Part shown: positions 4,190 to 49,669 of the stretch, piece by piece
Layout of the letters: each line of letters starts with the position of its first letter
How positions within the stretch are numbered: position 1 is the stretch's first letter
NCBI GenBank assembly: GCA_017676125.1
Contig: GCA_017676125.1_4893.1
Source of the DNA: a phage
Strand: one strand, 5' to 3'
Length of the DNA: 52,493 nucleotides
Notes under the pieces: generated by a model
What the model was told of the DNA's origin: nothing
What the model saw: only the letters and a program-made list of their open reading frames with translations
The model's database searches: none
Made by a program: the position numbers and the translations under genes

Positions 4190-5167
4190 ATGTCACTGTA
4201 TATTTTTAACGAACAAGTACGTTCTACCGCCACCGAACTGGTCGACCAGGACGTACAGAAGTTCAACGAAGCTTCTGCAGGTACCCTTATCCTGGGTAAC
4301 CAGTACGTAATTGGTGATTACGTTGAGCAGGCAATGTGGCAGCTGGTTGATGGCATCGCTACTCGCCGTAACGCTTACGCTGGCACCAACAAAGTTGATG
4401 CTCAGACTCTGGGCCAGATTCTGGACCGCTCTGTTAAAATCGACGGCCGTGTTGGTCCTCTGAACATTACCGGTACTATGATGCGCCGCATCGGTGCAGG
4501 TGACACTGAGCCAGCAGCTGTTGTTGCTGCACAGGCTTCTGCTGCAATGTTCCAGGATTACCTGAACACCACTGCTGCATGTCTGGTAGCTGCTATCGGC
4601 GCAAACGCTGATGTTGTTCTGGACGTAACTTCAGGCTCCGGTGCTGCTGCAAACATCACCATGCAGAACCTGAACAAAGTCAACGCGAAGATGGGTGACC
4701 GTTCTCAGCAGATTCGTGCGTACATCATGCACTCTACTGCGTTCCACTCCCTCATCGATCAGGCTATCAACAACACGGAACACCTGTTCCAGATTGGTGA
4801 CCTGAACGTGTACAAAGACTTCCTGGGTCGTCGTTATGTCGTTTCCGACATCCCGGCTCTGGTTGATGGCGCCGGTGCTTCCGCTAAGTACCGCACTCTG
4901 GGTCTGACCCCGTCTGCTGCAATCGTTCAGGTCGGCGGCCTGTACGACATGGTTACCTCCGAGCAAACCGGTGGTGAAAACATCCTGCGTCAGATGCAGG
5001 GTGAATACGACTTCAACGTGTCGCTGAAAGGCTACAGCTGGGTCGGTCACAAAGCTGGTCAGTCTCCGACTGATGAAGACCTGGCTGCTCAGGCGTCCTG
5101 GTCTAAAGTTGCGACTTCCAACAAAGACACCGCTGGTGTTATGTTGCTGGCTAAGTCTGCAATCTAA
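4190..5167 (+). CDS. major capsid protein
   Basis: 325 aa ORF after scaffold gene; followed by strong intrinsic terminator; position typical for major capsid protein. Confidence 0.7.
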   Translation: MSLYIFNEQVRSTATELVDQDVQKFNEASAGTLILGNQYVIGDYVEQAMWQLVDGIATRRNAYAGTNKVDAQTLGQILDRSVKIDGRVGPLNITGTMMRRIGAGDTEPAAVVAAQASAAMFQDYLNTTAACLVAAIGANADVVLDVTSGSGAAANITMQNLNKVNAKMGDRSQQIRAYIMHSTAFHSLIDQAINNTEHLFQIGDLNVYKDFLGRRYVVSDIPALVDGAGASAKYRTLGLTPSAAIVQVGGLYDMVTSEQTGGENILRQMQGEYDFNVSLKGYSWVGHKAGQSPTDEDLAAQASWSKVATSNKDTAGVMLLAKSAI

Positions 5168-7088: not shown

Positions 7089-7711
7089 TGGCAACTGAAG
7101 TAGACCCGGAACTGCAAGCGCAGCTGGATAAGCTAACAACTGCTGTCCAGCTCATTCATGACTTCGGTATGTCAGACAACCCAAACATCCCTAACCCGGA
7201 AGGCGGTGTCATACGCACACTCGAAGGCATTAACGCTGCAATCAACGAAGCTATACCAAACTTTGAAAACGCTAACGAAGCTGCTATCCAGGCGCGTGCT
7301 GCTCGTGACGCGGCTATTGCAGCCAAAGAAGCTGCAGAAACGGCAGCTGAACAGGCCACAGTAGCTTCGACGTCAGCAATCTATGAGTACGGCAACGTTG
7401 CAAGTGCAGCTACAGTGACTATACCAGCTGCATCTAAAACAATTGTCAGCCTTACTCTTAACCAGCCAAACACCGTAATTAATATCGGTGGTGTATCTGA
7501 CCCGTCTACTGTTGCGCGTCAGATTACTATTGCTATTAAGCAAGGCACTGGTTCTAACAAAGTGACTGCTTGGGATCCCAGAATAAAATGGGCTAATAAC
7601 AGAAAGCCCGTTCTGTCATTCCTTGTGGGTTACACAGATGTTGTTACGTTGCTTACCTTTGACTCAGGCGCAACTTGGATGGGTTTCTTTAACGGTGGAT
7701 GGATTAAATAA
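7088..7711 (+). CDS. hypothetical structural protein, Ala-rich
   Basis: 207 aa ORF with overlapping start/stop to neighbours; Ala/Glu-rich helical segment. Confidence 0.4.
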   Translation: MATEVDPELQAQLDKLTTAVQLIHDFGMSDNPNIPNPEGGVIRTLEGINAAINEAIPNFENANEAAIQARAARDAAIAAKEAAETAAEQATVASTSAIYEYGNVASAATVTIPAASKTIVSLTLNQPNTVINIGGVSDPSTVARQITIAIKQGTGSNKVTAWDPRIKWANNRKPVLSFLVGYTDVVTLLTFDSGATWMGFFNGGWIK

Positions 7712-26818: not shown

Positions 26819-28786
26819 TTAGTGTGCCTCTGCCCAGTTACTTTCTATCTTAGCATCAGTAAGAACAGGTACACGAAGCGGTAGTACAGTTTCCATGACC
26901 CGTACGAAATCATAGAATCCATCTTCTGCTTGTTTACCAGTTGGTAGAGAGAAGTTAAGCTCATCGTGTACCGTCAGGCGAGGTACGCCAATCACGTCAA
27001 AGTAACCGTCTTCATACCCTTTCAGCATTGCAGACTTCATCTGGTCTGCTGACGACCCTTGCAGCACTCGGTTGATTGCTTTGTGGGTGTCTGCCAGTTT
27101 AATGTTTGGACCATACTCCTGACGTGCTTCTTCAAATGGTAAAGGCATCTTACCGAATCCACCACGTTTTGGGACCCACTTGTTGAACCATGTCTTCCGG
27201 CCCATAAAGGTTTCTACATAACCCTGGCTATAACATAAATCTTCATAATGCTTCATGGTAGCACCAATGAATGGTGCACCCTGATGGTACGCCTTCAGAA
27301 CAGGTTCTGCTTCTTCAGGCGTCATTGCTAACTTACGGGCAAGAGCATTAAGCATCATGCCGTACAACAAACCAAAGTTAATGGTCTTAGCCGGTTTACG
27401 CTCTATAACGTGACCTGAGGCTTCCTTGATAATATCGACCATAACATTGTGGTAATCTGCTTCCGGGTTAGCCGCGAAAATTGCTCGTAACTCATCAGCG
27501 CCCGGGCCGACTGCAAAATGCGCCATGAATCGATATTCAATTTGGGCGTAGTCTGCTGACCCCCATCTGTGTCCGACATCCGGTACGAAACAAGCACGAA
27601 GGAGTGGTCCCAGTATTTTGTGTCGAGACGGTATATTCTGCAGATTAGGGTCAGATGAGCTAAACCTACCACTAACGGTTCCACCGTCATCACCGCGCAT
27701 TTGATGGAATTGACCGTGAAGGAAGCCATTTGTATTCATCCCCAATATATAGCCACGAATAAACGTGGACTGGATTTTCTCATAAGACTTAATCTCAGAC
27801 ACCAGTTCCGCAAACGGATGGTGCAAGCCTGCTAAGAAGTCTGCCGTAAACGACGGATTGCCCGCCGCTGTTCTGAAGTACTCCAGACCTAAATGGTCAA
27901 ATGCAAGAGCTAAGTCCGGACCTGAGTTAACGTTAATGTTAAAGCCAATCTGGTCTTTAATCTGCTGGTGCATTTTCCTTATTTCAGCGCTAAGCGTATC
28001 ATCCGCCTCTTTGGCCTTGTCAAGGTCAACACGCACACCCGCAAAACGCATCTTAAGCATTAATGGAATGAGCTTGCACTCCATATAGAATACGTCTGTT
28101 AAGCACCAGCGACTTAACAAAGGCCACTGGGCTTTGATAATGTGTATTGGTAAGTCGGCGTCAGATTCAGCATAGTAACCCACAAGACGAGGAGGCGTTT
28201 TGTAGATGTACTTTCTGGCTTCACCTGTTGGTTTACAGCCATAAGCATCTGAAATCCATTGGTACATCTCGGCTGAGTCTTTACCTTCGCCTACATACTT
28301 TCGTCCAAGTCCTTCAAGTGCAACACGCGCGCCTGGGTCGAGTAATGCTTCCGCGAATTGTACATCCATGCACAATCCTTTAACTTCCACGCCTTCTGCT
28401 GCAAGCCAGCCCAAGTCATATGTGATGTTAGCACCGACTTTAACTTGGTTAGGTCGCGAGAGTTCGAGCCGAAGCCAACCAAGTACTTCCTCAGCTGGAA
28501 GGTTATCCTCTTCGCCGAGCTCGTGTCTGATTGGGTAGTAAGCTTTGAAGCCGTTGTCCGTAGCGATACTAACTCCAACGATATGACCCTCCCTCCTGGC
28601 CCAACCACTACCATTTGTATCCATCCCTGGGTCGTATGTTTCACAGTCAAGACCGATAATCTTTGCAGAAGACAAATCCGGGTAATGCGCGCGCGGCCGC
28701 CATCCAGTATCCCTGACGTATGGTATAGGACGGTTGATAGGTTTAACATTCTTTGCACCTTCGAAGCTATCGAATAAAAAGCTCAT
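26819..28786 (-). CDS. DNA polymerase, family A (Pol I/T7-like) with 3'-5' exonuclease domain
   Basis: 655 aa; exo motif LDCETY; motif A DYAQIEYRF; motif B RKPAKTINFGLLYGM; motif C VHDE. Confidence 0.9.
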   Translation of the reverse strand: MSFLFDSFEGAKNVKPINRPIPYVRDTGWRPRAHYPDLSSAKIIGLDCETYDPGMDTNGSGWARREGHIVGVSIATDNGFKAYYPIRHELGEEDNLPAEEVLGWLRLELSRPNQVKVGANITYDLGWLAAEGVEVKGLCMDVQFAEALLDPGARVALEGLGRKYVGEGKDSAEMYQWISDAYGCKPTGEARKYIYKTPPRLVGYYAESDADLPIHIIKAQWPLLSRWCLTDVFYMECKLIPLMLKMRFAGVRVDLDKAKEADDTLSAEIRKMHQQIKDQIGFNINVNSGPDLALAFDHLGLEYFRTAAGNPSFTADFLAGLHHPFAELVSEIKSYEKIQSTFIRGYILGMNTNGFLHGQFHQMRGDDGGTVSGRFSSSDPNLQNIPSRHKILGPLLRACFVPDVGHRWGSADYAQIEYRFMAHFAVGPGADELRAIFAANPEADYHNVMVDIIKEASGHVIERKPAKTINFGLLYGMMLNALARKLAMTPEEAEPVLKAYHQGAPFIGATMKHYEDLCYSQGYVETFMGRKTWFNKWVPKRGGFGKMPLPFEEARQEYGPNIKLADTHKAINRVLQGSSADQMKSAMLKGYEDGYFDVIGVPRLTVHDELNFSLPTGKQAEDGFYDFVRVMETVLPLRVPVLTDAKIESNWAEAH

Positions 28787-29781
28787 CAGTCCCCTCTCAC
28801 ATACGCAATTACAACTGTACGAGTTGAGTTTTCCATTTTGAGCGCCTGACTACCAAGCCCTATTCTTTCCATGCCTTTAGCCAGTTTACTCATCTGACTA
28901 ATAACACAGTTGAATGGTTTACTAAACTTAGTCGACTGGAACTTAATGTCGACGGACATCTTTGGAATAATCTTATCTGGTAAGTCTGCCTTTGCAGTTG
29001 ACTCGCCTGTTATCTCCAGGATGGCTTGACCTTCGTCATACCCAGTAAGCTGGTCCATGACTTCCAGGAACTCAGGAGTGATGGCCTGCATATCCATTTC
29101 CATATTGAAGAACTTCGATACGTCTGGCCATTTGGCCGCAAGTACCGGGGCATCCATCTGTACACCATCTGCAAAGCCGAAGAACATCTGGCCGCGGGCG
29201 TATCCTACACTTGTGGGTTCCATCTTCAACTTAACCAGAGCCTCAAGCATTGGTTTGGCTATGGCACATTCAAATTCAAAATCTACGTTCAGCTTCTCGC
29301 GTATCATATACTTACCGTTAGTGGCGTAAGCATAACCATCGCGTAAAAGTAAGGATGTTGCCCATACCTGCGGTGCTTCGTTAGGTACCCATTTGGCTAA
29401 GGCAGTTAATACCGGGAGTAATTCGCCATGCGCTGAATACCAGTTGTTAACTGTAGCAAGTGGCGGTATTGGTTCATTAAGCGCTTGCATTCTTGTTTTA
29501 AGTACACCTGCTGTGACTGTGAGGTTTCCAGCGGCTGTAATGTTAAAAGTAATCTGTTCAGTTCTTGCCGCATTAACGGCCTTACGAAATGATTCAGCAT
29601 CCACTTGCAGGTCTGGAAATCCTTTACATGGCGCTCGTAGTAATACGTTCTTGTAGTATGAATGGATTGTTCCGTCTGCAATCCATATTTTGCCCATAAG
29701 ACCACTATCAGTATACTTGATGGGACGAGCTTGTTGAACGGCAGTCTGTATTTGTTTGGTGTCATAGTTAAACTTGCTCAT
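28786..29781 (-). CDS. hypothetical protein; possible DNA polymerase processivity factor (beta-clamp-like)
   Basis: 331 aa ORF coupled to polymerase start; weak by-eye resemblance to DnaN segments (ADGT..., ...NGKYMIRE); not verified. Confidence 0.4.
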   Translation of the reverse strand: MSKFNYDTKQIQTAVQQARPIKYTDSGLMGKIWIADGTIHSYYKNVLLRAPCKGFPDLQVDAESFRKAVNAARTEQITFNITAAGNLTVTAGVLKTRMQALNEPIPPLATVNNWYSAHGELLPVLTALAKWVPNEAPQVWATSLLLRDGYAYATNGKYMIREKLNVDFEFECAIAKPMLEALVKLKMEPTSVGYARGQMFFGFADGVQMDAPVLAAKWPDVSKFFNMEMDMQAITPEFLEVMDQLTGYDEGQAILEITGESTAKADLPDKIIPKMSVDIKFQSTKFSKPFNCVISQMSKLAKGMERIGLGSQALKMENSTRTVVIAYVRGD

Positions 29782-29811: not shown

Positions 29812-30696
29812 TTATACGGCCATTTGGAGTTTGATGTTTGGCATTGGTTTGTACTTCTCAACCATTGGCGCAACATCGGCAGGAGTGAAGTCAAACACTG
29901 ACACGTCGTAAATCGCGTTAATGTCAGGACGACCTTCAAAGTTAGTGTCCAGTGTAGTGTCAGAATTGCTCACGATACGTTGCAGGAAAATCTTTGCCGC
30001 ATCAATATGATTCTGATAGATATGATAATCACCCAGCGTAACAGTCATGTCACCAACACCAGTACCCAGTTCAGCAGCAATGGTAATCTGCAACATCTGA
30101 TGCAACAGAATATCGTGAGGCAGACCAAGGATAACATCCGCGCTACGCATGTGGAACATCAGCTCTAATTCATTACGGTTGTTAATGAACAGCTGAAAAC
30201 CATGGTAACAAGGCGGAAGGGCCATGGCGTCCATCTCTTGTGGGTTCCATGCCGTAATGTACGCCCTGCGGTCGGTAGGCTTAACCTTCAGCGTTTCAAT
30301 AACGTCTTTAAGCTGGTTAGTAAGAACACCATTCTTATAGAATGGCTTAATCCATTGCACGCCGTACACAGGACCTAAATCACGGTTGTCTGGCGTACCC
30401 CAACGTTTGTTTGCGTCCTGCAGGTTACCTTCCCACCAGTTACAGCCAAAGCCTTTGAGCGTGTCGACGTTTGAAATGCCGTTGATAAAGCAGTAAAGCT
30501 CAGCAGCAACAGCTTTGATGTTAACAGGTTTAAATACCGGCACCATCAGTTTGTTGTCGTTAAAAGCCAGCTTAAACGCTGTACCAAAACAACGGCGTGT
30601 ACCAACACCTGTACGGTCTACAACATCCTCGCCTTTACGCAGGATAAAAGAAATGATGTCGCTGTAAAGAGAATCGACAGTGCTGTATGTTTTCAT
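29812..30696 (-). CDS. thyA: thymidylate synthase (ThyA family)
   Basis: 294 aa; ThyA motifs DRTGVGT, DLGPVYGVQW, catalytic Cys in LPPCYH, MRSAD, GDYHIYQNH (Asn retained, uracil-type specificity). Confidence 0.8.
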   Translation of the reverse strand: MKTYSTVDSLYSDIISFILRKGEDVVDRTGVGTRRCFGTAFKLAFNDNKLMVPVFKPVNIKAVAAELYCFINGISNVDTLKGFGCNWWEGNLQDANKRWGTPDNRDLGPVYGVQWIKPFYKNGVLTNQLKDVIETLKVKPTDRRAYITAWNPQEMDAMALPPCYHGFQLFINNRNELELMFHMRSADVILGLPHDILLHQMLQITIAAELGTGVGDMTVTLGDYHIYQNHIDAAKIFLQRIVSNSDTTLDTNFEGRPDINAIYDVSVFDFTPADVAPMVEKYKPMPNIKLQMAV

Positions 30697-31289
30697 TAAA
30701 ACAGTTCCTTTTGTGCCGGGTTAACGTGTGCGTCGATGATAGCCTGGATGTCAGGTGCTTTCCATCCTTCAGGCTTAACAATATCCTGACCAGACTTATG
30801 CTTACTGTTGCTTGCATCAGGCTTAGCACGTTCTTTCGCCATGTTAGCAGTCTGTACCGCATCCCATGCAGCATCAAGCGGCCAGTTGTTGTTTGCACAC
30901 CAGGTAATCAGGTGGATAATTAACTGGGCCAGACGGTCGCAATGGGTGTCTTCAGTATCTTTAACGTATACGATAAGACCATCAGCATCGAAGCGGTCCA
31001 TAAATCCGCATGGCGTAGTTAACAGAATCGGATATTCAAATTCGTTGGTGAACCATGCAGTCTGGTCGTACAGGTATAACGTACCTGCAGCAATATAAAT
31101 TAAATCTACAATACCGTCTAAGAATCCAGCTTTGTCGCCGTCCTTCTTAGCTTGTTTAATTTCTTCCATCTCCTCAATAAGACGGTCGTAGCGAAGCTTG
31201 AACTCAGGTTTACCGCCTTGGCTAACAGGCTTGAGGTCAAACTTCTCATGAAAAGCGGTAACGCCTGCAGCAATTTTACTGAATCGCAT
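30696..31289 (-). CDS. MazG-like nucleoside triphosphate pyrophosphohydrolase (putative)
   Basis: 197 aa; EEMEE...D acidic helix pattern resembling all-alpha NTP pyrophosphatase (MazG/HisE) fold; adjacent to thyA. Confidence 0.45.
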   Translation of the reverse strand: MRFSKIAAGVTAFHEKFDLKPVSQGGKPEFKLRYDRLIEEMEEIKQAKKDGDKAGFLDGIVDLIYIAAGTLYLYDQTAWFTNEFEYPILLTTPCGFMDRFDADGLIVYVKDTEDTHCDRLAQLIIHLITWCANNNWPLDAAWDAVQTANMAKERAKPDASNSKHKSGQDIVKPEGWKAPDIQAIIDAHVNPAQKELF

Positions 31290-34861: not shown

Positions 34862-35740
34862 TTATTTTAAGGAAAGTTTAACGGGCTTCTCATCCTGCGG
34901 GAAGACATCAGCAGGGCGATAATCATCACAAGCTGCTAATTGCTCTTCGATTGTTTCGAGTTCTTTCTGGTGCTTGTTGCAATACCACACTTTGCCCTGA
35001 AGCGGTTTACTGTAATGGCAGGTTCTGCAGTTCCTGTCTGGCATTGCCCCTTTGTGGCACAGGTGATGGTATTCGCACATCCCTGGTTTGCACTCCCACC
35101 AAATAGGCGATTCAGAAATCTTCGGCATATCCAAACCAGATTCCGCATATACAACAGCCTCCGCTTTACTCAGTTGTATGTCGCTTTCCAGTAAGTCAAT
35201 ATCGACCACTTCAAAATACATCTCGTCAGTGTTCTTATTGATTGCAATGTACACAGCTTGATTCAGCTTAAGCTTCCGCATGTATACCTGCATCTGGGCA
35301 TAGTGTACCGGCTTACTTGCTTTAACAGACTTGAGCTTGACTAACTCTTTAAACGACTTATCGCCATGCGTCTTGAACTCAGCAAGTGCCCATACGCCTT
35401 TGTATTTAATTACACAGTCACAAGACCCAGAGAAGATGTCATTGAATTCGTGTATGCGCCACTGCTTACCAGTCTTGGGATTGACGTCCAGCACTTCGTC
35501 ACATACGGTGCGAAGCCACTTTACAATTCTGCTTTCTTCAAGGTTACCACGTTCAAACAGACGAAGTTGCTTAGCCGAAAACTTCTCCTTGAACGACCAG
35601 TGCAGAACGTGCCAAAGATAGCGATAGCAGTTGTGTCCTATCTGCGATGCTCCAAGATGCCCGCGTCGTTCTTCTCTTTCGTGGGCTTCGACTATCTTGA
35701 TGTCAATACGTTTCTGCAGGTCGTCAAACGGACTTGGCAT
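34862..35740 (-). CDS. PD-(D/E)XK exonuclease, Cas4/RecB-like with Fe-S cluster cysteines
   Basis: ATG at 35740 with GAGGAG RBS; N-terminal Cys (GHNCYRYLW), D...EFK and QxxxY (HYAQMQVY) nuclease motifs, C-terminal C-x4-C-x5-C. Confidence 0.6.
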   Translation of the reverse strand: MPSPFDDLQKRIDIKIVEAHEREERRGHLGASQIGHNCYRYLWHVLHWSFKEKFSAKQLRLFERGNLEESRIVKWLRTVCDEVLDVNPKTGKQWRIHEFNDIFSGSCDCVIKYKGVWALAEFKTHGDKSFKELVKLKSVKASKPVHYAQMQVYMRKLKLNQAVYIAINKNTDEMYFEVVDIDLLESDIQLSKAEAVVYAESGLDMPKISESPIWWECKPGMCEYHHLCHKGAMPDRNCRTCHYSKPLQGKVWYCNKHQKELETIEEQLAACDDYRPADVFPQDEKPVKLSLK

Positions 35741-36209
35741 TGTTAAACTCCTCAACGCTGAATTCATCGTACACAATATTATGCGCCCACAAATGGGCAA
35801 CGGCATTTGCCATGCTATCCTTCCATTTGGATTGAGAAGCTGTATGAGCCAATGCAACTACACGTACCAGGTTAAGGTTGGCTATCAGCATGTCTGCACA
35901 ATGTTCGCACGGCGGGTAGGTTATGTAGATGGTAACCGGGCCTAATGAAGGAGTGTCTAACTCACTCCTTATATTAGCTAAGGTATTTATCTCGCTATGA
36001 ATAGTGAGAGCGTTCTTGAGGCTATTAGGCACTATTCTTATAGAGTCTAACTGCGTAGGCAGACCATTATATCCAGTGGAAATAATACGCTTGTTCTGGT
36101 CCACAAGAACGCTACCGACTTGGCGTTTCGGGTCCTTCGACCAGCTAGCAACTTCACAAGCTATGCGCATAAACCGCCTGTCCCACTTGTCCATCTTTTT
36201 CTTTTGCAT
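35724..36209 (-). CDS. dCMP deaminase (cytidine/deoxycytidylate deaminase family)
   Basis: 161 aa; zinc-binding H(S)E and PCxxC motifs (HSEINTL...PCEHCADMLI). Confidence 0.8.
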   Translation of the reverse strand: MQKKKMDKWDRRFMRIACEVASWSKDPKRQVGSVLVDQNKRIISTGYNGLPTQLDSIRIVPNSLKNALTIHSEINTLANIRSELDTPSLGPVTIYITYPPCEHCADMLIANLNLVRVVALAHTASQSKWKDSMANAVAHLWAHNIVYDEFSVEEFNNAKSV

Positions 36210-41814: not shown

Positions 41815-41907
41815 TGGTTGTATCTCCTTAACAGAATGTAAGTCTATTATGTATATAAAGGAGGGGAAAGTAAATAGATATAAATGTATAAAATACATAA
41901 AAGTCTA

Positions 41908-41937
41908 TTTACTCTGGTTTAATAACGTGTATATAAT
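41908..41937 (+). promoter_or_regulatory. sigma70-like promoter TTTACT-N18-TATAAT for primase operon
   Basis: -35 TTTACT 41908-41913, -10 TATAAT 41932-41937, upstream of plus-strand gene at 41968. Confidence 0.5.
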
Positions 41938-41967: not shown

Positions 41968-42300
41968 ATGATAAAGCCAAAACTGTTGCGGCATATTCGC
42001 AACGGTATTAAGCTACTCGCCGAAGGCAATGAATATGCCTGCAAGCAACGCGGTATTACAAAAGTCGGCCTGTTCAATAAAGAGTTACCGACTCGCTACT
42101 TTACCAAATCACCATTAACACTCGTACCTGCAGCGGAGTATTATAAAGACCCCGAAGCAGCTCGGGCTAAAATCAAGGAAGGTCTTGACCGACTTGTAGA
42201 GGAAGGCTATTTGACAGTACGTCAACACACTGAATCATCTTATTACTACAAGCCAACTTCTAAGGTAACCAGCAATGACAATGACGAGTCAGCCGAGTGA
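41968..42300 (+). CDS. hypothetical protein (possible DNA-binding/regulatory)
   Basis: 110 aa ORF with GAGGAGAG RBS, first gene of plus-strand island, overlaps primase gene start. Confidence 0.5.
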   Translation: MIKPKLLRHIRNGIKLLAEGNEYACKQRGITKVGLFNKELPTRYFTKSPLTLVPAAEYYKDPEAARAKIKEGLDRLVEEGYLTVRQHTESSYYYKPTSKVTSNDNDESAE

Positions 42301-44809
42301 TATTCTCGGTCTGAAATACTTTAAGCCAGAAGGGATTCCCCAAGTCTTCAAAGATATGAAGCGCTGGGCTATTTTTGAGCTGACGTACGAAGACGAGACC
42401 CTCGAAGTTCAATCCAAACCTAAGAAACCTGCAAGAGCGCCATCAGGCCGTTCCTTCAGCACAACAGTGCCTGAAGAGTGGATGACTTTCGACGACGCCC
42501 TGACACGTTGTATTCGCAATCGTGAAATGAAGATTAAAGCTGTACAGGGTAATATCACCTTTGTGCCGGCTTTGATTGTTCCTCGCCAGTGGTACTTTGT
42601 TGACCTGGACAACCATGATGATAATCCAGACATTGAAGCAACCCACAAAGCGATAATTGAGGGGACCCGTGGTGCGTATGCTGAGACATCAATCTCTGGC
42701 AAAGGGCAACACATTGCAATCCCTTTACCATGGACTGCAGCAACATCCAAAGAGAAAGACGAACAGCTGGACATCAAAATCCAGAAGGCTGAGATGTTCC
42801 TGGTAATGACAGGCAATGTATTGAGCGAGTTCAATGCTAATCCTGTTTCAGCCCGCGAATGGCATGCAGCAATTGAGAAGTTCTTTCTTGAAGCAAGCGC
42901 ACCTGATATTGATGTTGAGTTTGAGCAAGACGAAGACCGTGGCGAAGAGTATGACAAAGAGCTGTACGAACAGTTAGCCGACAATACTCGCTGGGCTTTA
43001 GAGCACTATCTGAATGAGCATGCACCAGACGGTGTTGGTGTGAGTAATGACGGTTCAGAACGGTTAAGCCGCATACTCAAAGATCTGCTTCGTGTAACCC
43101 GCAACTACGAAGTTACACAACGCATCTTCATGGCCAGCAAAGCTGCAGCATACGAAGGTCGCAGACCAAGCCGACATAACTTGTCTGTTGATAAGTACCA
43201 TCAATGGTTCAGTCGTGTTGGTAAGACTGTGCTGAAAGAAATGCAACGTGACGGCTTATTCGTTAAGACCAAGTTTGCTCTTGACATCAACAAAGAGTTA
43301 GCCAAGAATTCAGGTGTCTCCCTGGCTGAGAATGTTGAGTTCAAGGTCAACGACGATATTCTGCCTTCTGATGTATTCGTCAGAACGGCCCCGTCCGGGT
43401 TTAAACGGCTTATTGCTGAGATACAGGATAACATATCTCCTGCTAACAGGGTTAACGACTATGCCATCGGCACAGCTCTTAACATCCTGAGCAACTGCGC
43501 TGGTCGCAAGTATGTTTGTCCAGTAGGCGGTCATGCTAACTTCCTGGTAACCAACATCATTCTTGTGGGTGGTTCATCAATCGGTAAATCGCTGTATACC
43601 GAGTTGTTCCCACAAATCCAGGCAAGTGTGCCAGACACATCGCCTATCAGCCTTAACCGTATCCCAAGGGAACAGACTTTTGCAACCAGGACGTTTGCTG
43701 AACTGATGTCCAACCCGTCATACCATTCAGTCCAGTTGTTCTACCCTGAATTTGGTCTGGCTTTAGGTTCTGGCTTACGCATGAATCCTAACAACCCGGA
43801 CAACTTTCAGAAAGCTCTGATGGACGCTTCAACCAAGCGTAAGGTTGGTGGTATTCTGACAGGTATCAAACGTGCTAATGCTGACAATGATGTCAAGACA
43901 GTAAGCGAACCGTGCTACTCTATCCTGGGTGACTCAACTCAAGAGCTTATCCTTGACAACACCCGGAAGCAAGACTTCTCAAGTGGCTTTTTGCCCCGCT
44001 TCCTGTTCATCCCGAACTATGAACGAGCGGAGTTTGCCAAACCTGAGAAGGTAGGACGTCGCCAGCAGATTCGCCGTACTCAATTCTCCAAAGAGCTGAT
44101 TGAGAAGCTGGAGGCAATCGCTTATGTGAATGCTATCCCGCCTAACGGTAAACTAAGGCACGACCCGATTCCTATTTACGACGAATCGGACGACGACGAC
44201 TTCCTGTACGAGTACCAGTGCAATATTAATGACATGCGCCAGTATTACAGGGATAACGAAGTAGCATCTGCCTTTGTGGGCCGAATGGGCGAGTATGTAT
44301 TCAACATAGCAGCACTGATTGGATTACTCGACAACTGGGATGCTCCTGTAATGACCAGGGACAACATCGAATGGGCTTACAAATACGTTCTTCGTTGTAT
44401 AACCGCCTGGGTCAATAACACAAGCAGGATAGTCGCACCACCAACTACCAACGCCGAAGTAGTGGACGGCTTCCTCAAAGTCTACAGGGACATTTTGGCC
44501 CTTTACACCAAAAGAGGATGGTCTGGCATTGTCAAGCATTATCCCGAAGGTGTTGTAAGAAGTATCCGGGAGGAGCACCTCCAGATGAATGGTTTAAGCA
44601 TATATGCTATTCGTCAGTCTTTGAGCTGGTTTAAATCAAATTATGGTTTTAATATCACAGCTAATAACAAAGTCATTGACGGTATGCTCCAGGATATGAT
44701 TGACCAGGACTATTTAGCAGTACAAGTATATAAGCCCACAAGAGGCCGATCTGCTAACATTTACTGCCTGACAGAGCGAGGATATGACACTGCTAAGAAG
44801 TTAAAATAA
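42275..44809 (+). CDS. primase-polymerase (AEP/PrimPol) fused to P-loop (SF3/D5-like) helicase
   Basis: 844 aa; N-terminal FVDLDNHDD (DxD) and SISGKGQH (sGxGxH) PrimPol motifs; central Walker A VGGSSIGKS; DDDD Walker B-like run. Confidence 0.65.
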   Translation: MTMTSQPSDILGLKYFKPEGIPQVFKDMKRWAIFELTYEDETLEVQSKPKKPARAPSGRSFSTTVPEEWMTFDDALTRCIRNREMKIKAVQGNITFVPALIVPRQWYFVDLDNHDDNPDIEATHKAIIEGTRGAYAETSISGKGQHIAIPLPWTAATSKEKDEQLDIKIQKAEMFLVMTGNVLSEFNANPVSAREWHAAIEKFFLEASAPDIDVEFEQDEDRGEEYDKELYEQLADNTRWALEHYLNEHAPDGVGVSNDGSERLSRILKDLLRVTRNYEVTQRIFMASKAAAYEGRRPSRHNLSVDKYHQWFSRVGKTVLKEMQRDGLFVKTKFALDINKELAKNSGVSLAENVEFKVNDDILPSDVFVRTAPSGFKRLIAEIQDNISPANRVNDYAIGTALNILSNCAGRKYVCPVGGHANFLVTNIILVGGSSIGKSLYTELFPQIQASVPDTSPISLNRIPREQTFATRTFAELMSNPSYHSVQLFYPEFGLALGSGLRMNPNNPDNFQKALMDASTKRKVGGILTGIKRANADNDVKTVSEPCYSILGDSTQELILDNTRKQDFSSGFLPRFLFIPNYERAEFAKPEKVGRRQQIRRTQFSKELIEKLEAIAYVNAIPPNGKLRHDPIPIYDESDDDDFLYEYQCNINDMRQYYRDNEVASAFVGRMGEYVFNIAALIGLLDNWDAPVMTRDNIEWAYKYVLRCITAWVNNTSRIVAPPTTNAEVVDGFLKVYRDILALYTKRGWSGIVKHYPEGVVRSIREEHLQMNGLSIYAIRQSLSWFKSNYGFNITANNKVIDGMLQDMIDQDYLAVQVYKPTRGRSANIYCLTERGYDTAKKLK

Positions 44810-44821
44810 GTAGGTAAATCA

Positions 44822-44864
44822 AGGGCTTGGGTAATTGTAAAAATCCTAAGCCCTTATTTTTTAA
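44822..44864 (+). terminator. rho-independent terminator after primase-helicase gene
   Basis: Stem AGGGCTTGGG/CCTAAGCCCT with 13-nt loop followed by TATTTTTTAA. Confidence 0.65.
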
Positions 44865-45033
44865 GCTTATTTTACAAACTGATTAATATTTAAACTATAA
44901 TTAAATATATGGACCCTAAGAGTATGATTTTATTACTCTTTTACAAATCATAATATATGGGCTCCCTATAAAAAGATTAAGGGGGTAATAAGGGGATCCA
45001 AGTACCGGATAAAAGGGGGTATATATTTATTTT

Positions 45034-45053
45034 ATTATTATTATTATTATTAT
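45034..45053. repeat. (ATT)n microsatellite in AT-rich intergenic region
   Basis: ATTATTATTATTATTATTAT run, about six to seven units. Confidence 0.8.
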
Positions 45054-45210
45054 ATATTATTAATTATATTAGAAGTAATAAAAACAGCTACTTAGAGGCG
45101 TCTATATGTATGATCCGGTTTATCTCTTTATTAATATCAGAACCGGATGAAAAAAATTTACGCTGGCGAAAAAAATAAAAAAGCCGGATTGATAAATAAA
45201 TCTGTAGACG

Positions 45211-45239
45211 TTTACACTATAAAAAAGATGTGTTACAAT
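45211..45239 (+). promoter_or_regulatory. sigma70-like promoter TTTACA-N17-TACAAT
   Basis: -35 TTTACA 45211-45216, -10 TACAAT 45234-45239, upstream of resolvase-like gene. Confidence 0.5.
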
Positions 45240-45293
45240 ATTTATCAATGTTGCTGGTTACCAAATCTTTGGATTATATACGAGGCTGAATAA

Positions 45294-45725
45294 ATGGTAA
45301 ATATTAGAGCGAAGGGGCAGAACTTTGAGCGTAAAATGGCTAAGAAGTTCAATAGCTCGTTCGGATTAACTGTTGAGCGCAATCTTCAACAGTCTATTAA
45401 TGGCGGGGATGACTTGCTTGGTGTACCGTTTTTCAGCGTTGAACTGAAGAAGCACAATACCAAGTCTATCGGAACATGGTGGAGACAGTGTGCGGCATCG
45501 GCAAAGGCTCAGAACAAGATGCCGGTACTGATATACGAACTACCAAGAAAACAGCCTACCGTGGTGATGAATAAAGCTGATGTGATTGACTGTTTTCCAA
45601 GTGGCACGACTTTTAACGAGGCATCGAATCGCCTCTTTGTGGGTCTAGTAGAATTAACATGGGAACAATTTTGCCGGGTCTACAACTATTACGTTGCGCC
45701 CGGCACTCAATATCACGTCAATTAA
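45294..45725 (+). CDS. Holliday junction resolvase-like PD-(D/E)XK endonuclease (Hjc-like, putative)
   Basis: 143 aa; N-terminal KGQNFERK...GGDDLLGV...FSVELKK pattern (G.xFER, D, ExK) resembles archaeal-type Hjc resolvases. Confidence 0.45.
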   Translation: MVNIRAKGQNFERKMAKKFNSSFGLTVERNLQQSINGGDDLLGVPFFSVELKKHNTKSIGTWWRQCAASAKAQNKMPVLIYELPRKQPTVVMNKADVIDCFPSGTTFNEASNRLFVGLVELTWEQFCRVYNYYVAPGTQYHVN

Positions 45726-45907
45726 TCTTGTTTCAGCTCGTCACAAATGACACGCTGATTTTTGGCAGGGATAATACCAAGATTTAGCAGGGTGTATGGA
45801 CTATCAGCGACGCATTGTTCAACGGTAGTCCATTCAGGTTTGGATTCAACAATTTCGTAACTACAATCATGAGTAGCCACACATGTTGCCAGGATTAAGC
45901 CAATCAC
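45722..45907 (-). CDS. hypothetical small protein, hydrophobic N-terminus
   Basis: 61 aa ORF, GTG start overlapping upstream stop (GTGA); convergent with resolvase gene. Confidence 0.4.
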   Translation of the reverse strand: MIGLILATCVATHDCSYEIVESKPEWTTVEQCVADSPYTLLNLGIIPAKNQRVICDELKQD

Positions 45908-46083
45908 AAGTAATCACCTTCAACCAGGAACTCAAACAGCTGGTTGTAAACGTTGCAACCTTTAGCGAAAGAGCTTTCAGCAGGTTTACCGTCGCGGACA
46001 ATCATCATGTACTCACCGCCATGGATGTCCACCCAGTATTGCATGCCACCTTTGACCGGGTTACGTTGTAAGAATTTAAACAT
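45904..46083 (-). CDS. hypothetical small protein (59 aa, below ORF-track cutoff)
   Basis: ATG at 46083 overlaps stop of upstream gene (TAATG); translated by eye. Confidence 0.35.
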   Translation of the reverse strand: MFKFLQRNPVKGGMQYWVDIHGGEYMMIVRDGKPAESSFAKGCNVYNQLFEFLVEGDYL

Positions 46084-46328
46084 TATTTGCTCCTTATTCC
46101 AAGTTTATTCAATAACCAAATTGTCATGTCAACCCATGTTAACGGTACAGTTTTCGGGGGTTGATAATTCCAGCAGCTTGCAGTTCTTTGTATTTCTGCT
46201 TGGCGCCGCTCCGCTTCGCGTAATACCGCATCGTCAGAAGTGCCGGCAGAAAAAAGATCGGTAACACCAGATAAATCGCGTTGATTAACACGTCGAGCAA
46301 TGTCATATAAGTCATCCTTAGAAAACAT
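46083..46328 (-). CDS. hypothetical protein
   Basis: 81 aa ORF in coupled minus-strand chain. Confidence 0.45.
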   Translation of the reverse strand: MFSKDDLYDIARRVNQRDLSGVTDLFSAGTSDDAVLREAERRQAEIQRTASCWNYQPPKTVPLTWVDMTIWLLNKLGIRSK

Positions 46329-46534
46329 AAGCCAATACCATAAGAATTATCATAAAGACCACAACCAGCTTCCTCATTGCCCGACCTTCAGCATATGCAG
46401 GATTCACAACAGAATACTCAACAACATGTTTACAGCGGACCATAAGGCCTCCACTTGTGGGTTAATTCAATCATGAGGACTTTCATCAAATCCTCATTGT
46501 TGAATCAATCACCAGCGTCAGGACTTGACTAATA

Positions 46535-46738
46535 TCACTCTATCATTACCTGAACTACTATTATACACTCTTTATTGAAGCGAGTAAACACTTTTCCACC
46601 ATTAGTGCGTTTAGCCCCAGATTTTAGAGCTGACTGGCACCAGATATGCCACTCCTCAACTGTCAAGAATTTTTGCTCAGCTTTGGGTGGCAATCCATGG
46701 GCAAGGTCTACCGTCGTAAATTTGACTAGTGGCATCAC
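46535..46738 (-). CDS. hypothetical protein
   Basis: 67 aa ORF; start overlaps upstream stop. Confidence 0.45.
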   Translation of the reverse strand: MMPLVKFTTVDLAHGLPPKAEQKFLTVEEWHIWCQSALKSGAKRTNGGKVFTRFNKECIIVVQVMIE

Positions 46739-47124
46739 TTGACCTCAAATTTTGACTCGTCGTATTCCGGATCAGTCACGTCCCGGGTCGCACAATTTTT
46801 GATTGCTTCCCAGTAACGTTGGGCATCATCGCCATCGGCATAAACCGTCCAGTAGCCGTAACCACCTTCAAATCTGTCCCAGGCTTGTTCCCAGACTTTG
46901 CCATCTTCCAGCTTGTACCAAGTTGGACGACTGTCAAACTCACGAATTGGATGGTACCCCAACAAGGGATTCATCAGGTCAATAATGTCTTCCCGACTAA
47001 TCTCCTGGTTCTCCCACAACACCGTCATGAATTGCTCAAACTTGAAGGCGTTTGGCAGAACTTTGAGTACTTTACCGTCACAATATACGGTATAGGTACC
47101 ATCTTCGCATTTTGCACTGTACAT
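46735..47124 (-). CDS. hypothetical acidic Trp/Tyr-rich protein
   Basis: 129 aa ORF preceded by conserved leader GAAATTATTCACAATCAACAGGAGAGAGAAAC. Confidence 0.5.
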   Translation of the reverse strand: MYSAKCEDGTYTVYCDGKVLKVLPNAFKFEQFMTVLWENQEISREDIIDLMNPLLGYHPIREFDSRPTWYKLEDGKVWEQAWDRFEGGYGYWTVYADGDDAQRYWEAIKNCATRDVTDPEYDESKFEVK

Positions 47125-47197
47125 GTTTCTCTCTCCTGTTGATTGTGAATAATTTCAAAAATGAACTATCACAACTTTGGACAGTTCATTGTTGAAA

Positions 47198-47371
47198 CTA
47201 TGCTAACTTTGTTGCGATCTGAATTGTCAGCCGGAAATCTTCCATCAAGTTATCAAACTCTTTGGAACCACCAACAGCATCAGATATTTGATCTTTCACA
47301 ATTTGGGCATTTGATTCCAGTAATTCAATCAGGTGCGCCAATTCGTCTTCAGTCAATTTCAGATCTTTCAT
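47198..47371 (-). CDS. hypothetical small acidic protein
   Basis: ATG at 47371 overlaps upstream stop (ATGA); 57 aa, acidic helical. Confidence 0.45.
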   Translation of the reverse strand: MKDLKLTEDELAHLIELLESNAQIVKDQISDAVGGSKEFDNLMEDFRLTIQIATKLA

Positions 47372-47625
47372 AATGCATCCACCCAAGCCATAACTTTTGC
47401 CAGTCTTACAACGTCTTCATGGTCCCGCTCGCCATCAGAAAATTCGCTGGCGATGATACCCATAATTGACGCCAGATTCATGTTGATGATGTATGCGTGT
47501 TGGCGCACTTCATCAATTCCTGAATCTATCACCAGTTCCGCAAATTCTTGTGAACCTTCATCCCACTCAGCCCAATACTGCTCAGCATAAAAGTCCAGTT
47601 CTTTTTTCATCTCAATGTCAGTCAT
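47368..47625 (-). CDS. hypothetical small acidic protein
   Basis: 85 aa, strongly net-negative (many D/E). Confidence 0.5.
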   Translation of the reverse strand: MTDIEMKKELDFYAEQYWAEWDEGSQEFAELVIDSGIDEVRQHAYIINMNLASIMGIIASEFSDGERDHEDVVRLAKVMAWVDAL

Positions 47626-47630
47626 TTTGA

Positions 47631-47789
47631 TTACTCCTCAGAACCTGAAAATTTGTCGTCAATGGCTTCAACAATATAATCAAGAGTTGAAGTGTGAGAA
47701 CTATCAGAAAAAGTGCCCATCTTCTCTAACTCAATCATCATATCACGCAAGGCCATCGCCTGGTCTTTGGTCAGTTTGATTTTAAGCAT
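47631..47789 (-). CDS. hypothetical small acidic protein
   Basis: ATG at 47789 preceded by conserved leader (second copy); 52 aa. Confidence 0.45.
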   Translation of the reverse strand: MLKIKLTKDQAMALRDMMIELEKMGTFSDSSHTSTLDYIVEAIDDKFSGSEE

Positions 47790-47853
47790 GTTTCTCTCCT
47801 GTTGATTGCGAATAACTTTCATTGATGGCACTACTTGAGCGCCATCTCAAAAA

Positions 47854-48423
47854 TTACTCTTTAGTTTCTTGTGCTTCAGTTTCAGGTTTTACTTCAGTAT
47901 CAGGTTTTTTGCCAGTTACTGATTTGCCTTCGGTCACTTTACCAGATTTTACATCATTACGGTAGTATGACATATATGACTGGATAACACGTTTTGCCTT
48001 AATATCATCCGCTTCCATTCCGCAAGCTTTCATCGCATCAGCGAGCGCCAATTTGGAATCTTCCTTATCCATCAGGTTGTAATCTTTGAACACCAGATAG
48101 CAGGTATCTTTAGTTGACGGACCAGATGACGATTTGCGAGAGCCACCAGCGGATGCTCGTGTTGTCGCAACTTTGACTTCTTCAACTTCCAGTTGGTTCA
48201 GCTCGTCAAACAAAGCCTTCACCAGCACTTCTTTGGAGTCTTTGACGCTTACAGTACTTTCATCATTAAGCGACTTAATCATCTTAATGATCTGGTTGTT
48301 GGCAAAGTACTGAAGACTATCCATCTGCACTACAATAGTGCCAAGACTTTCAGTAGTCAGACCAGATTTCACAGACTCGACAGAAAAAGCGGAAGTCAGG
48401 TAAACGTAGTTGATAGTTGTCAT
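47854..48423 (-). CDS. hypothetical protein
   Basis: ATG at 48423 with GAGGA RBS (track ORF extends to 48492); 189 aa, Lys/Glu-rich C-terminus. Confidence 0.5.
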   Translation of the reverse strand: MTTINYVYLTSAFSVESVKSGLTTESLGTIVVQMDSLQYFANNQIIKMIKSLNDESTVSVKDSKEVLVKALFDELNQLEVEEVKVATTRASAGGSRKSSSGPSTKDTCYLVFKDYNLMDKEDSKLALADAMKACGMEADDIKAKRVIQSYMSYYRNDVKSGKVTEGKSVTGKKPDTEVKPETEAQETKE

Positions 48424-48518
48424 TTGATGTATCCTCGTTGATAGAATTTTTGATATGTGCCAATCCTTGGCAAGTAAGTCCAAACATGACAACTTTTGTC
48501 AAGTTGTCATGATTGAAA

Positions 48519-48821
48519 TCACTTCGCGCTTGCGTTTTCAACGGCTTGTACAACTTTCAACAAATGCCTGAAGTCATCATGATAAATTTCATTAAAGCCA
48601 TCTGCCGCAAAGTTTTCGCCAATTAAGATCAGTCTTTCGCGGACCAAGTCAATCAATAGTTTATTGTCAGTTATTTCCGCACCTGTAACAAGTTCAACAA
48701 ATAATTGCTGTACGTTATCATAACGGATGTTGCTTTCAATACACACTTGGCGCATGTCTTCAACTATTGACATGATTGTGACTTGCATTTCTACGTCAGA
48801 AGTGATGCTATTCAGTTTCAT
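48519..48821 (-). CDS. hypothetical acidic protein, first gene of leftward early operon
   Basis: 100 aa ORF adjacent to divergent control region. Confidence 0.5.
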   Translation of the reverse strand: MKLNSITSDVEMQVTIMSIVEDMRQVCIESNIRYDNVQQLFVELVTGAEITDNKLLIDLVRERLILIGENFAADGFNEIYHDDFRHLLKVVQAVENASAK

Positions 48822-49194
48822 AATAGTTACCTTTGTACTAGTTTCCAGGTGTGACTACTGTTACCAATAGTCACTAGTTGAAACTACTACTTGTGTTACT
48901 ATCAACAAGAAACATGTTACCAAATTGTTAAAGAGCAAAAGGTACCATTGACATCTACCAGATGTACCTGTTGACTGGTTAAGTACTACCTACCTAATCT
49001 AAACCATACCAATATCCTTTAGACCAGTTAGACTGGTCAATCAGTCATCACATTCAATAAATATATAATAGACCAATCGCTATTGATTGTACATAAAAGA
49101 ATTGCAAGTTTATGCAAGTTTTTAGAAATGATAATCACTTGCGATTGAGAGTGGTTCTCATATGCAATTGATATAGTTTCACATGTAATTATTC

Positions 49195-49440
49195 AATCCA
49201 AAATGGTCGGCAGGGGTTATAATAACATAGGGGTGCCACTTAAAGGAGCCGGCGAAATTATTTCTAAAAATATAATTTCAATCTGAATTATAGACGCTTT
49301 GTACTATACCGGCCGAAGTAGTTCACACGGTAATTGTACCAATCATAATAGTTACCAGAGTAATCATTTCAATTGAAATAGGTGCGGCGGGGGGGTAATT
49401 TCGCAGGGGTGCTACCTGCCAGGAGCCAGCAAAATTTTTT
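49195..49440. repeat. two ~75-bp imperfect direct repeats in divergent control region
   Basis: 49195-49270 and 49365-49440 share TCAAT..AAA.GG.GGC.GGGG.TAAT...AGGGGTGC.AC.T...AGGAGCC.GC.AAATT.TTT skeleton. Confidence 0.6.
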
Positions 49441-49669
49441 ATTTTTTCTCTATTTTCTCCTTATCAGGACCAATCATCATCAGATTGATACAACAGGAGC
49501 TAACCTTTTGCTTAACACAATAATAAGTGAAGCCCCTCTAAAATTTTTTTATATTTTTCGGAAATTGTGTAGACACTCACTAAAAAGTGGTGTACTTTCT
49601 CTCCTCCACGCGCTATCATTAATGTGAATCATCAAACGGCCTCACGGTCTCCTACTTGTGGGTAACATT

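Follow-up and report, generated by a model that had tools for sequence, protein, structure and literature searches.

The question raised by this locus is what kind of replication protein is encoded by the 844-residue open reading frame (ORF) that lies on the plus strand between minus-strand gene blocks of a phage genome (contig GCA_017676125.1_4893.1), and whether the transcription unit that carries it ends at an origin. The window, i.e., the whole stretch of 52,493 nt that was analysed, is about one genome length and represents essentially the whole genome of a Salmonella/E. coli phage of the Rosemountvirus (BP63-like) type, with 98% DNA identity to Salmonella phage brunost. The gene spans 42275..44809 on the plus strand (stop codon included) and starts with ATG, exactly as described in an earlier first-pass annotation of the same DNA. 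A plausible Shine-Dalgarno sequence (AAGG) is located 9 nt 5' of the start codon. The protein matches the PHROGs family phrog_3022 ('DNA primase') over its full length (3.9e-186), and its N-terminal part also matches two other primase families. We estimate at about 80% the probability that this gene encodes the single-chain replicative primase-helicase of the phage, with an NrS-1-type primase domain and a helix bundle followed by a flexible linker, an MCM-like AAA+ domain of the DUF3987 family and a basic winged helix; the analysis shows the identities of the domains, the conserved residues, the anatomy of the operon, and the synteny. The first-pass proposal of a primase and a helicase in one chain is correct, except that the helicase is MCM-like and not P4 alpha-like or D5-like.

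The N-terminal part contains the catalytic domain of an NrS-1-type primase-polymerase (PrimPol) from the class of archaeo-eukaryotic primases (AEP), assigned by profile comparison (42317..42949, plus strand, residues ~15-225), and behind it a helix-bundle domain (HBD, PriCT-like; 42950..43294, plus strand, residues ~226-340). A word-indexed homologue search returned only seven close relatives and was too shallow, so an exhaustive HMMER search was needed; it yielded 588 family representatives, mostly 750-850 residues long and collinear with the query. To avoid circularity, the data were split into the narrow clade of the query (seven sequences) and the rest of the family. Alignment of the two profiles with hhalign gave a probability of 100% (E 1.1e-61) across query residues 17-835. 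When a profile of 53 family sequences was compared with PDB, the best scores were obtained for SaPI5 PriRep5 (7OLA, 1.3e-62) and the N300 fragment of the NrS-1 polymerase (6A9W, 7RR3, and 6K9A, ~4e-53), and both persisted when the clade of the query was removed (7.7e-63 and 7.7e-53, respectively). These matches are confined to the first ~310 profile positions, with ends at ~276-312.

The conserved residues of the AEP domain agree with this assignment. The motif I residues D110 and D112, part of the sequence FVDLDNHDD (residues 108-116) that the first-pass annotation had quoted, are invariant in 53/53 aligned sequences, and the D-D-H set is kept in 155 of the 156 sequences of the full-family alignment, which was made with MAFFT under faster settings. 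The SxS loop and motif II lie in the likewise quoted SISGKGQH (residues 139-146): S139 is invariant in the family alignment and E137, S141, G142, G144, H146, T179, and G180 are at least 90% conserved. The motif II block aligns with NrS-1 such that S139, S141, G142, G144, and H146 correspond to S108, S110, G111, G113, and H115. In NrS-1, the SxS loop replaces a zinc finger, and S108 and S110 are catalytically critical (PMC8718748). The AEP and helix-bundle domains of the NrS-1 primase-polymerase (gp28; PDB 6A9W, 7RR3, and 6K9A) belong to the same sequence family as the query, and both proteins share the DxD motif, an SxS loop instead of a zinc finger, GxGxH, and the overall layout of PrimPol, HBD, and ring ATPase. 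Of the 53 family members, 36 carry the NrS-1-type helix bundle PF22763; the query alone falls below the Pfam threshold, and its residues 226-340 align through the helix-bundle region in hhalign, with S261 and F285 near-invariant.

The second half of the protein carries an MCM-like AAA+ (DUF3987) helicase core with its lid (43370..44434, plus strand, residues ~366-720), delimited by profile, conservation, and predicted structure. The third quoted motif, VGGSSIGKS (residues 431-439), includes the Walker A sequence GGSSIGKS (residues 432-439) with the invariant K438; E492 at the Walker B position is at least 90% conserved, and G571, R575, and R670 are invariant in the family alignment. In the structural model, R575 is a candidate arginine finger, placed within an LPRF motif similar to the SRF motif of MCM, and R670 in the lid helix is a candidate sensor-2 residue. 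The best structural match of the modelled helicase half is an MCM-like AAA+ fold. PF13148, the Pfam model of DUF3987, is carried by the relatives P0006 (78% identity) and P0007 (42%) and by 36/53 family members. DUF3987 proteins are described as an MCM-related family of superfamily 6 (SF6) helicases that is often fused to AEP and has a winged helix-turn-helix at its C-terminus (PMC4889955; also PMC5862659), and for one of them, the PriCT-DUF3987 protein AgaPH, helicase activity dependent on Walker A and B has been demonstrated (PMC11724360). AgaPH belongs to the same ATPase family as the query and is a polypeptide separate from its PrimPol, whereas the query fuses primase and helicase. The query falls outside MCM proper: sequence identity to archaeal and eukaryotic MCM is 10-15%, and its N-terminus is an AEP primase, with no MCM N-terminal OB-fold/Zn domain preceding the AAA+ core. 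The protein ends in a winged-helix domain (44546..44806, plus strand, residues ~758-844), which is basic (computed isoelectric point 9.1 for residues 765-844) and is the most divergent domain between relatives. Taken together, the sequence comparisons support a single polypeptide with an AEP-type primase, a putative P-loop helicase of hexameric type, and a predicted C-terminal DNA-binding domain.

The first-pass annotation had placed this architecture with P4 alpha-like or D5-like initiators, i.e., an AEP primase joined to a D5-type helicase of superfamily 3 (SF3) and an origin-binding C-terminus. The functional analogy holds: P4 alpha and poxvirus D5 also combine an AEP primase and a hexameric AAA+ helicase in one chain, and the order of AEP, P-loop ATPase, and C-terminal winged helix matches P4 alpha, in which an origin-binding winged helix is part of the same chain. 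Furthermore, the nearest solved homologues of the N-terminal part, the NrS-1 polymerase and SaPI5 PriRep5, carry SF3 helicases. Family membership does not hold. The helicases of P4 alpha and D5 belong to SF3 (D5_N/D5_C), whereas the query has no Pfam match to D5_N or a D5-type SF3 domain, and no SF3 helicase is among the top structural matches of the helicase model. Since NrS-1 and PriRep5 carry SF3 helicases, the query shares only the primase half with them. The C-terminal helicase of NrS-1 is SF3-like with 'Head' and 'Tail' domains, whereas the query has an MCM-like DUF3987 domain and a winged-helix end; the SF3 ATPase of PriRep5 likewise lies outside the profile match. Among the Reps of Staphylococcus aureus pathogenicity islands (SaPIs), only the SaPIbov1 Rep (a Rep2 homologue) is SF6/MCM-like. 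An SF3 initiator is therefore already largely refuted, and we regard it as very improbable. As an analogy of function, PriRep5 is nevertheless the closest to the unit analysed here: it is the best solved match to the primase part (E 7.7e-63 with the profile without the clade), and it joins a primase to a self-loading hexameric helicase in a single chain, with an origin-binding winged helix at the C-terminus and an ori directly downstream of its gene.

Several observations weigh against the reading as a single-chain replicative primase-helicase. In searches with the query alone, Pfam gave no match to Prim-Pol, D5_N, or Primase_C and no AEP model at E<=1, NCBIfam gave no AEP match at E<=1, and phmmer against PDB gave no AEP match, i.e., no AEP model was significant in any of these direct searches. 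A profile built from the clade only ranks NrS-1 first in PDB, but with an E value of 0.11, and the AEP assignment is therefore transitive. The search with hidden Markov models that the first-pass annotation had put forward as its own check thus had a divided outcome, as the direct searches nearly failed and the deeper comparisons with clade and family profiles rescued the claim. In the helicase half, the query scores 23.4 bits with PF13148 (residues 538-693, E 4e-5), below the gathering threshold of 27, and the predicted fold comes from structure prediction, not from a solved structure. The only characterised DUF3987 helicase, AgaPH, is reported to move 5'-3', opposite to MCM (PMC11724360), so that the polarity of the query helicase cannot be inferred. 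Biochemical or genetic data on this protein were not found in the papers retrieved. Finally, the motif III Glu, Tyr, and Arg that NrS-1 keeps are replaced in the clade of the query, which means that primase activity is not guaranteed.

In the query, the motif III strand is LDIKIQ (residues 165-170). All aligners place the motif III Glu of the family (NrS-1 E139; 43/48 sequences) opposite K168, and the nearby family Tyr (45/48) and Arg (46/48) opposite Q170 and M174. These replacements, together with clade member P0009, which is without an acid at both 166 and 168, speak for a catalytically degenerate AEP domain. The protein would then act only as initiator and helicase, the primase-like domain would have a structural or DNA-binding role, and priming would come from elsewhere. 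We consider this quite unlikely, because D110 and D112 of motif I and the clade-invariant N113 and H114 are kept down to 38-44% identity, the whole E-x-S-x-S-G-x-G-x-H block is invariant across the clade, and the scanned ORFs revealed no further primase. In addition, D166, two residues upstream of K168 on the same face of the beta-strand, is conserved in nine of the ten clade members. The canonical motif III acid is present in 136/156 sequences, and six other family lineages are without it yet retain D-D-H, which indicates that this position is tolerant within the family. The third acid has probably relocated to D166 in the clade of the query, where it may substitute for the canonical motif III acid.

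Membership of the N-terminal domain in the NrS-1 PrimPol family raises a further alternative, namely a self-sufficient replicase whose PrimPol would start chains de novo and also carry out bulk synthesis of the genome. The NrS-1 enzyme is described in PMC8718748 as the replicative polymerase of its phage. The retained SxS loop would fit such a role, as would F175, which aligns with NrS-1 Y146, a residue implicated in dNTP selection. The phage in the window, by contrast, has a Pol A of its own, which is a complete family A polymerase that includes a 3'-5' exonuclease domain, together with a predicted processivity factor (block at 26819-29781, minus strand), and AEPs do not proofread and as a rule serve as primases in vivo (PMC5862659). 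We therefore give this alternative next to no credence.

The gene is the second cistron of a short rightward unit. The first cistron (41968..42300, plus strand), present as the first-pass annotation had claimed, encodes a basic 110-residue protein, here called gp110, with a predicted winged helix and an acidic disordered tail (residues 101-110). Its ORF overlaps the start of the primase-helicase gene by 26 nt, and an overlap of 23-26 nt is kept in the phages S144, fHy-Eco03, and SOI901, which suggests translational coupling. Upstream of gp110 lies a sigma70-type promoter (41908..41937, plus strand; TTTACT, 18-nt spacer, TATAAT; 10/12 matches). A promoter scan found 14 sites in the window versus 9.1+/-2.9 in shuffled sequences, so that the scan on its own says little for this promoter. 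However, the window, S144, fHy-Eco03, and SOI901 all keep its -10 element TATAAT and the context TAT(T/G)TAC of its -35 element, down to 44% primase identity. What had been called a consensus promoter thus has a perfect -10 element conserved in four phages, whereas its -35 element matches at only 4/6 positions and its spacing is 18 nt. Back to back with it, a leftward promoter of the minus-strand replication block (41846..41874, minus strand; TTTACT, 17-nt spacer, CATAAT; 9/12 matches) is conserved in sequence in S144, fHy-Eco03, and SOI901, the three relatives with an aligned segment covering the site. Between the two -35 elements, the window contains a perfect palindrome (ATGTAT-AAA-ATACAT, 41884..41898), whose core GTAT..A.AC is conserved in the four phages and which is a candidate regulator site. 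Downstream, the unit is closed by a predicted intrinsic terminator (44821..44864, plus strand) with an 11-bp stem and a 13-nt loop (hairpin at 44821-44855) followed by the U-run UUAUUUUUU; its dG is -18.1 kcal/mol (z -3.15), and it is conserved in S144 and fHy-Eco03. This operon anatomy supports co-transcription of gp110 and the primase-helicase as a rightward unit.

gp110 has no match in Pfam or NCBIfam, and homologues were found only in the Rosemountvirus/Loughboroughvirus/SOI901 clade. It is 100% identical across most Rosemountvirus records sampled. Between the window and Erwinia phage SOI901, gp110 shows 76% identity, the primase-helicase 44%, and the C-terminal region of the primase-helicase 34%, which suggests that gp110 is strongly constrained and that the DNA-binding end of the primase evolves fast; the neighbouring replication proteins show 62-72%. 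In the distant family members Loki, PaMx42, and Pfeifenkraut, a small gene also abuts the primase start at a divergent junction. The products are weakly Cro-like helix-turn-helix (HTH) proteins, two of the three annotated as DNA-binding or HTH. They have no detectable homology to gp110, and the resemblance is therefore one of position only. Considering the favoured reading of a single-chain primase-helicase, the following course of events appears plausible. Host sigma70 RNA polymerase would transcribe gp110 and the primase-helicase gene rightward from the promoter at 41908-41937 and stop at the hairpin terminator at 44821-44864. The AAA+ domain would form a ring hexamer and unwind DNA by means of the Walker A residue K438, the Walker B residue E492, and R575 as an arginine finger acting in trans. 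The tethered AEP and HBD modules would lay down primers that are extended by Pol A and the processivity factor of the phage, and the fast-evolving C-terminal winged helix, possibly with gp110, would supply DNA targeting or loading. Hexamer formation, all enzymatic activities, the polarity of the helicase, its DNA target, and the role of gp110 are what we infer here.

The first-pass annotation had further suggested that the unit is a replication-initiation cassette, acquired as a module and ending at the phage origin, and the divergence of the gene would fit such a history: identity to SOI901 is 44% for the primase-helicase and 34% for its winged-helix end versus 62-76% for the neighbours. Composition, however, gives no foreign signal. 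The GC content of the gene is 0.467 (gene mean of the genome 0.459+/-0.030), its GC at third codon positions is 0.496 (0.461+/-0.059), and its codon-usage distance of 0.065 is the tied third-lowest of the 16 ORFs of at least 300 residues, comparable with Pol A (0.057) and the 985-residue ORF at 7711-10668 (0.065). The arrangement is conserved as well. In Rosemountvirus, Loughboroughvirus S144, fHy-Eco03, and Erwinia phage SOI901 (44% primase identity), the plus strand carries in succession the 110-aa gene, the primase gene, an AT-rich spacer of ~0.5 kb, and a gene for a PDDEXK nuclease, with minus-strand blocks on both sides, i.e., synteny and orientation are kept in all clade members examined. 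Typical composition and conserved arrangement do not support a recent acquisition of the module. The analysis shows a core gene and a cassette that was already present in the ancestor of the Rosemountvirus/Loughboroughvirus/SOI901 clade. Accelerated evolution or exchange among relatives could account for the faster divergence of the primase, and nothing points to a recent foreign source.

The second part of the cassette proposal concerns the AT-rich spacer (44865..45293), which would be the origin and to which the C-terminal winged helix would bind, on the model of SaPI Rep/ori systems. The spacer has 25-30% GC and holds a (TTA)15 tract (45027-45071) and short direct repeats (AAGGGGGTA at 44979 and 45013, and AATATATGG twice), and the ori of SaPIs lies directly downstream of rep and is bound by the C-terminal domain of Rep. 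The spacer as origin is an interpretation, not an observation, with the SaPI layout as its precedent. In initiators of the SaPI Rep type, the C-terminal domain binds iterons on either side of an AT-rich region directly downstream of the gene. Downstream of the query unit lie an AT-rich tract and short repeats, and the repeats co-occur with cut-site motifs at both boundaries of the predicted terminal repeat. GC skew in the window tracks the direction of transcription and gene orientation and gives no origin signal.

In fHy-Eco03, whose primase is 78.6% identical to that of the window, a direct terminal repeat of 3,699 bp has been mapped by PhageTerm (PMC8145870). The left end of this repeat is located ~360 bp 3' of the primase stop codon and aligns to window position 45164/45165; the other boundary aligns to position 49427. 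Both ends of the fHy-Eco03 repeat are cut alike in the shared motif CC|GGC[G/A]..AAA, which is followed by an A/T tract. The window contains three copies of the motif GC[CT]|[GA]GC[GA]AAA with an A/T tract (45162-45183, 49248-49270, and 49425-49447), and the first and the last align with the two repeat boundaries of fHy-Eco03 at the same cut position. We regard this motif as a candidate terminase cut site. The predicted left cut of the window phage falls between 45164 and 45165, in GCT|GGCGAAAAAAA, and its terminal repeat is predicted to span 45165-49427 (4,263 bp), consistent with ~57-kb records that include the repeat; with the alternative copy of the motif as cut site, it would end at 49250. 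The hexamer AGGGG[GT] has only 12 copies in the whole genome, all of them on the plus strand. Five (44980, 45014, 49212, 49229, and 49405) cluster upstream of the three cut-site-like motifs, at distances of 20-185 bp, and may be recognition repeats for terminase or packaging. The alignment of the spacer with a mapped repeat end and the recurrence of the motif at the right boundary indicate that the spacer repeats are better explained as terminus or packaging elements, and the spacer as the site of the genome terminus. We therefore judge a recently acquired cassette that ends at the origin to be unlikely.

These alignments also predict that, in the linear virion genome, the primase operon is the rightmost part of the unique region and lies directly against the terminal repeat, whose first gene is the PDDEXK gene. 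The plus-strand island would accordingly be two things, the primase operon and the first gene of the repeat. A bolder reading, which we hold to be rather improbable, joins these features into one initiation system of the Rosemountvirus/Loughboroughvirus clade. Here, gp110, a dedicated and highly conserved partner whose predicted fold resembles the winged-helix domains of Cdc6/ORC and kleisin, would target or load the MCM-like primase-helicase with its rewired AEP site (motif III Glu, Tyr, and Arg replaced and the acid moved to D166), with loading at an origin abutting the terminus. If this eukaryote-like two-component reading is true, replication initiation and regeneration of the terminal repeat would be physically coupled.

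This is a known gene, with annotations in many genomes, and published work has described its architectural class. The region shows 95-98% DNA identity to many of 59 matching phage records (brunost, BP63, JEP7, and others), which belong to Rosemountvirus and related Salmonella/Escherichia myophages, and the protein is 100% identical to the primase of phage brunost. Deposited names in Rosemountvirus genomes include "primase", "DNA primase", and "DNA primase/helicase". The same gene also appears as "hypothetical protein", "putative structural protein", and, wrongly, "anaerobic NTP reductase small subunit"; the records of relatives with annotation problems are MZ127825 (S1), NC_048179 (ZCSE2), MT663719 (S144), MW602648 (fHy-Eco03), and PP583539. 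Among relatives' records, gp110 is labelled 'glutaredoxin', and one 97.6% identical record is named as a Listeria phage, probably an error of host or label. Given these scattered names for one gene, the main value of the analysis lies in correct annotation, with the domain map fixed as NrS-1-type AEP, HBD, MCM-like DUF3987 helicase, and winged helix. Three minor leads go beyond the papers found: a non-canonical motif III, a winged-helix partner that is unusually well conserved, and a unit predicted to adjoin the boundary of the terminal repeat. They are relevant to the engineering and use of these widely isolated Salmonella/E. coli biocontrol phages, and none is a major surprise.

Mass spectrometry of purified virions detected the primase-helicase in S144 (ORF69; 2 peptides, 4% coverage) and both the primase-helicase and gp110 in fHy-Eco03 (gp79, gp80), where 48 phage proteins were found. 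Since many evidently non-structural proteins were detected too, as were endolysin, spanins, and thymidylate synthase, this is probably carry-over from the lysate, and we rejected the detection as a sign of packaging. Four antisense ORFs inside the gene (190, 83, 76, and 73 residues) had no PHROG match and were dismissed as spurious. Rfam gave no match in the region, and no tRNA gene was found in the window.

On the left flank, the minus strand carries genes for replication and nucleotide metabolism (Pol A, processivity factor, thymidylate synthase, SF2 helicase, Cas4-like exonuclease, dCMP deaminase, DUF669, and AAA_24). The larger ORFs scanned also include a MazG-like protein and several proteins without an assigned function, and no other primase or ring helicase was found among these ORFs. 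The statement that the unit runs opposite to all flanking replication genes is correct for this side, whereas the right flank consists of small uncharacterised minus-strand ORFs. The third gene of the plus-strand island encodes a PDDEXK/RusA-like nuclease (45294..45725, plus strand; PF24608 7e-18, phrog_244 3e-23). It has its own promoter, found in the promoter scan (45211..45239, plus strand; TTTACA, 17-nt spacer, TG-extended TACAAT), of which TTTAC and TACAAT are invariant in four phages. The three conserved phage promoters (41846-41937 and 45211-45239) share the -35 core TTTAC, two of them within CTATTTAC.

The predicted terminal-repeat region at 45700-49600, with a GC content of 0.39-0.44 compared with ~0.46-0.47 for the genome, contains small uncharacterised minus-strand ORFs and is possibly a block of early or host-takeover genes. 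The second very AT-rich divergent gap of the genome is located at ~48.9-49.3 kb. The DNA of fHy-Eco03 resists most restriction enzymes, and its authors suspected an unknown modification (PMC8145870). A pathway of base modification could include the thymidylate-synthase homologue, the PRA-PH/MazG-like protein, and the dCMP deaminase that are encoded in the window (29812-31289 and 35724-36209). Of the large genes, the 325-residue ORF at 4190-5167 has by far the most deviant codon usage (distance 0.207, others 0.05-0.15); it is located in the kilobase with the highest GC content of the genome (0.541) and may be a highly expressed structural gene.

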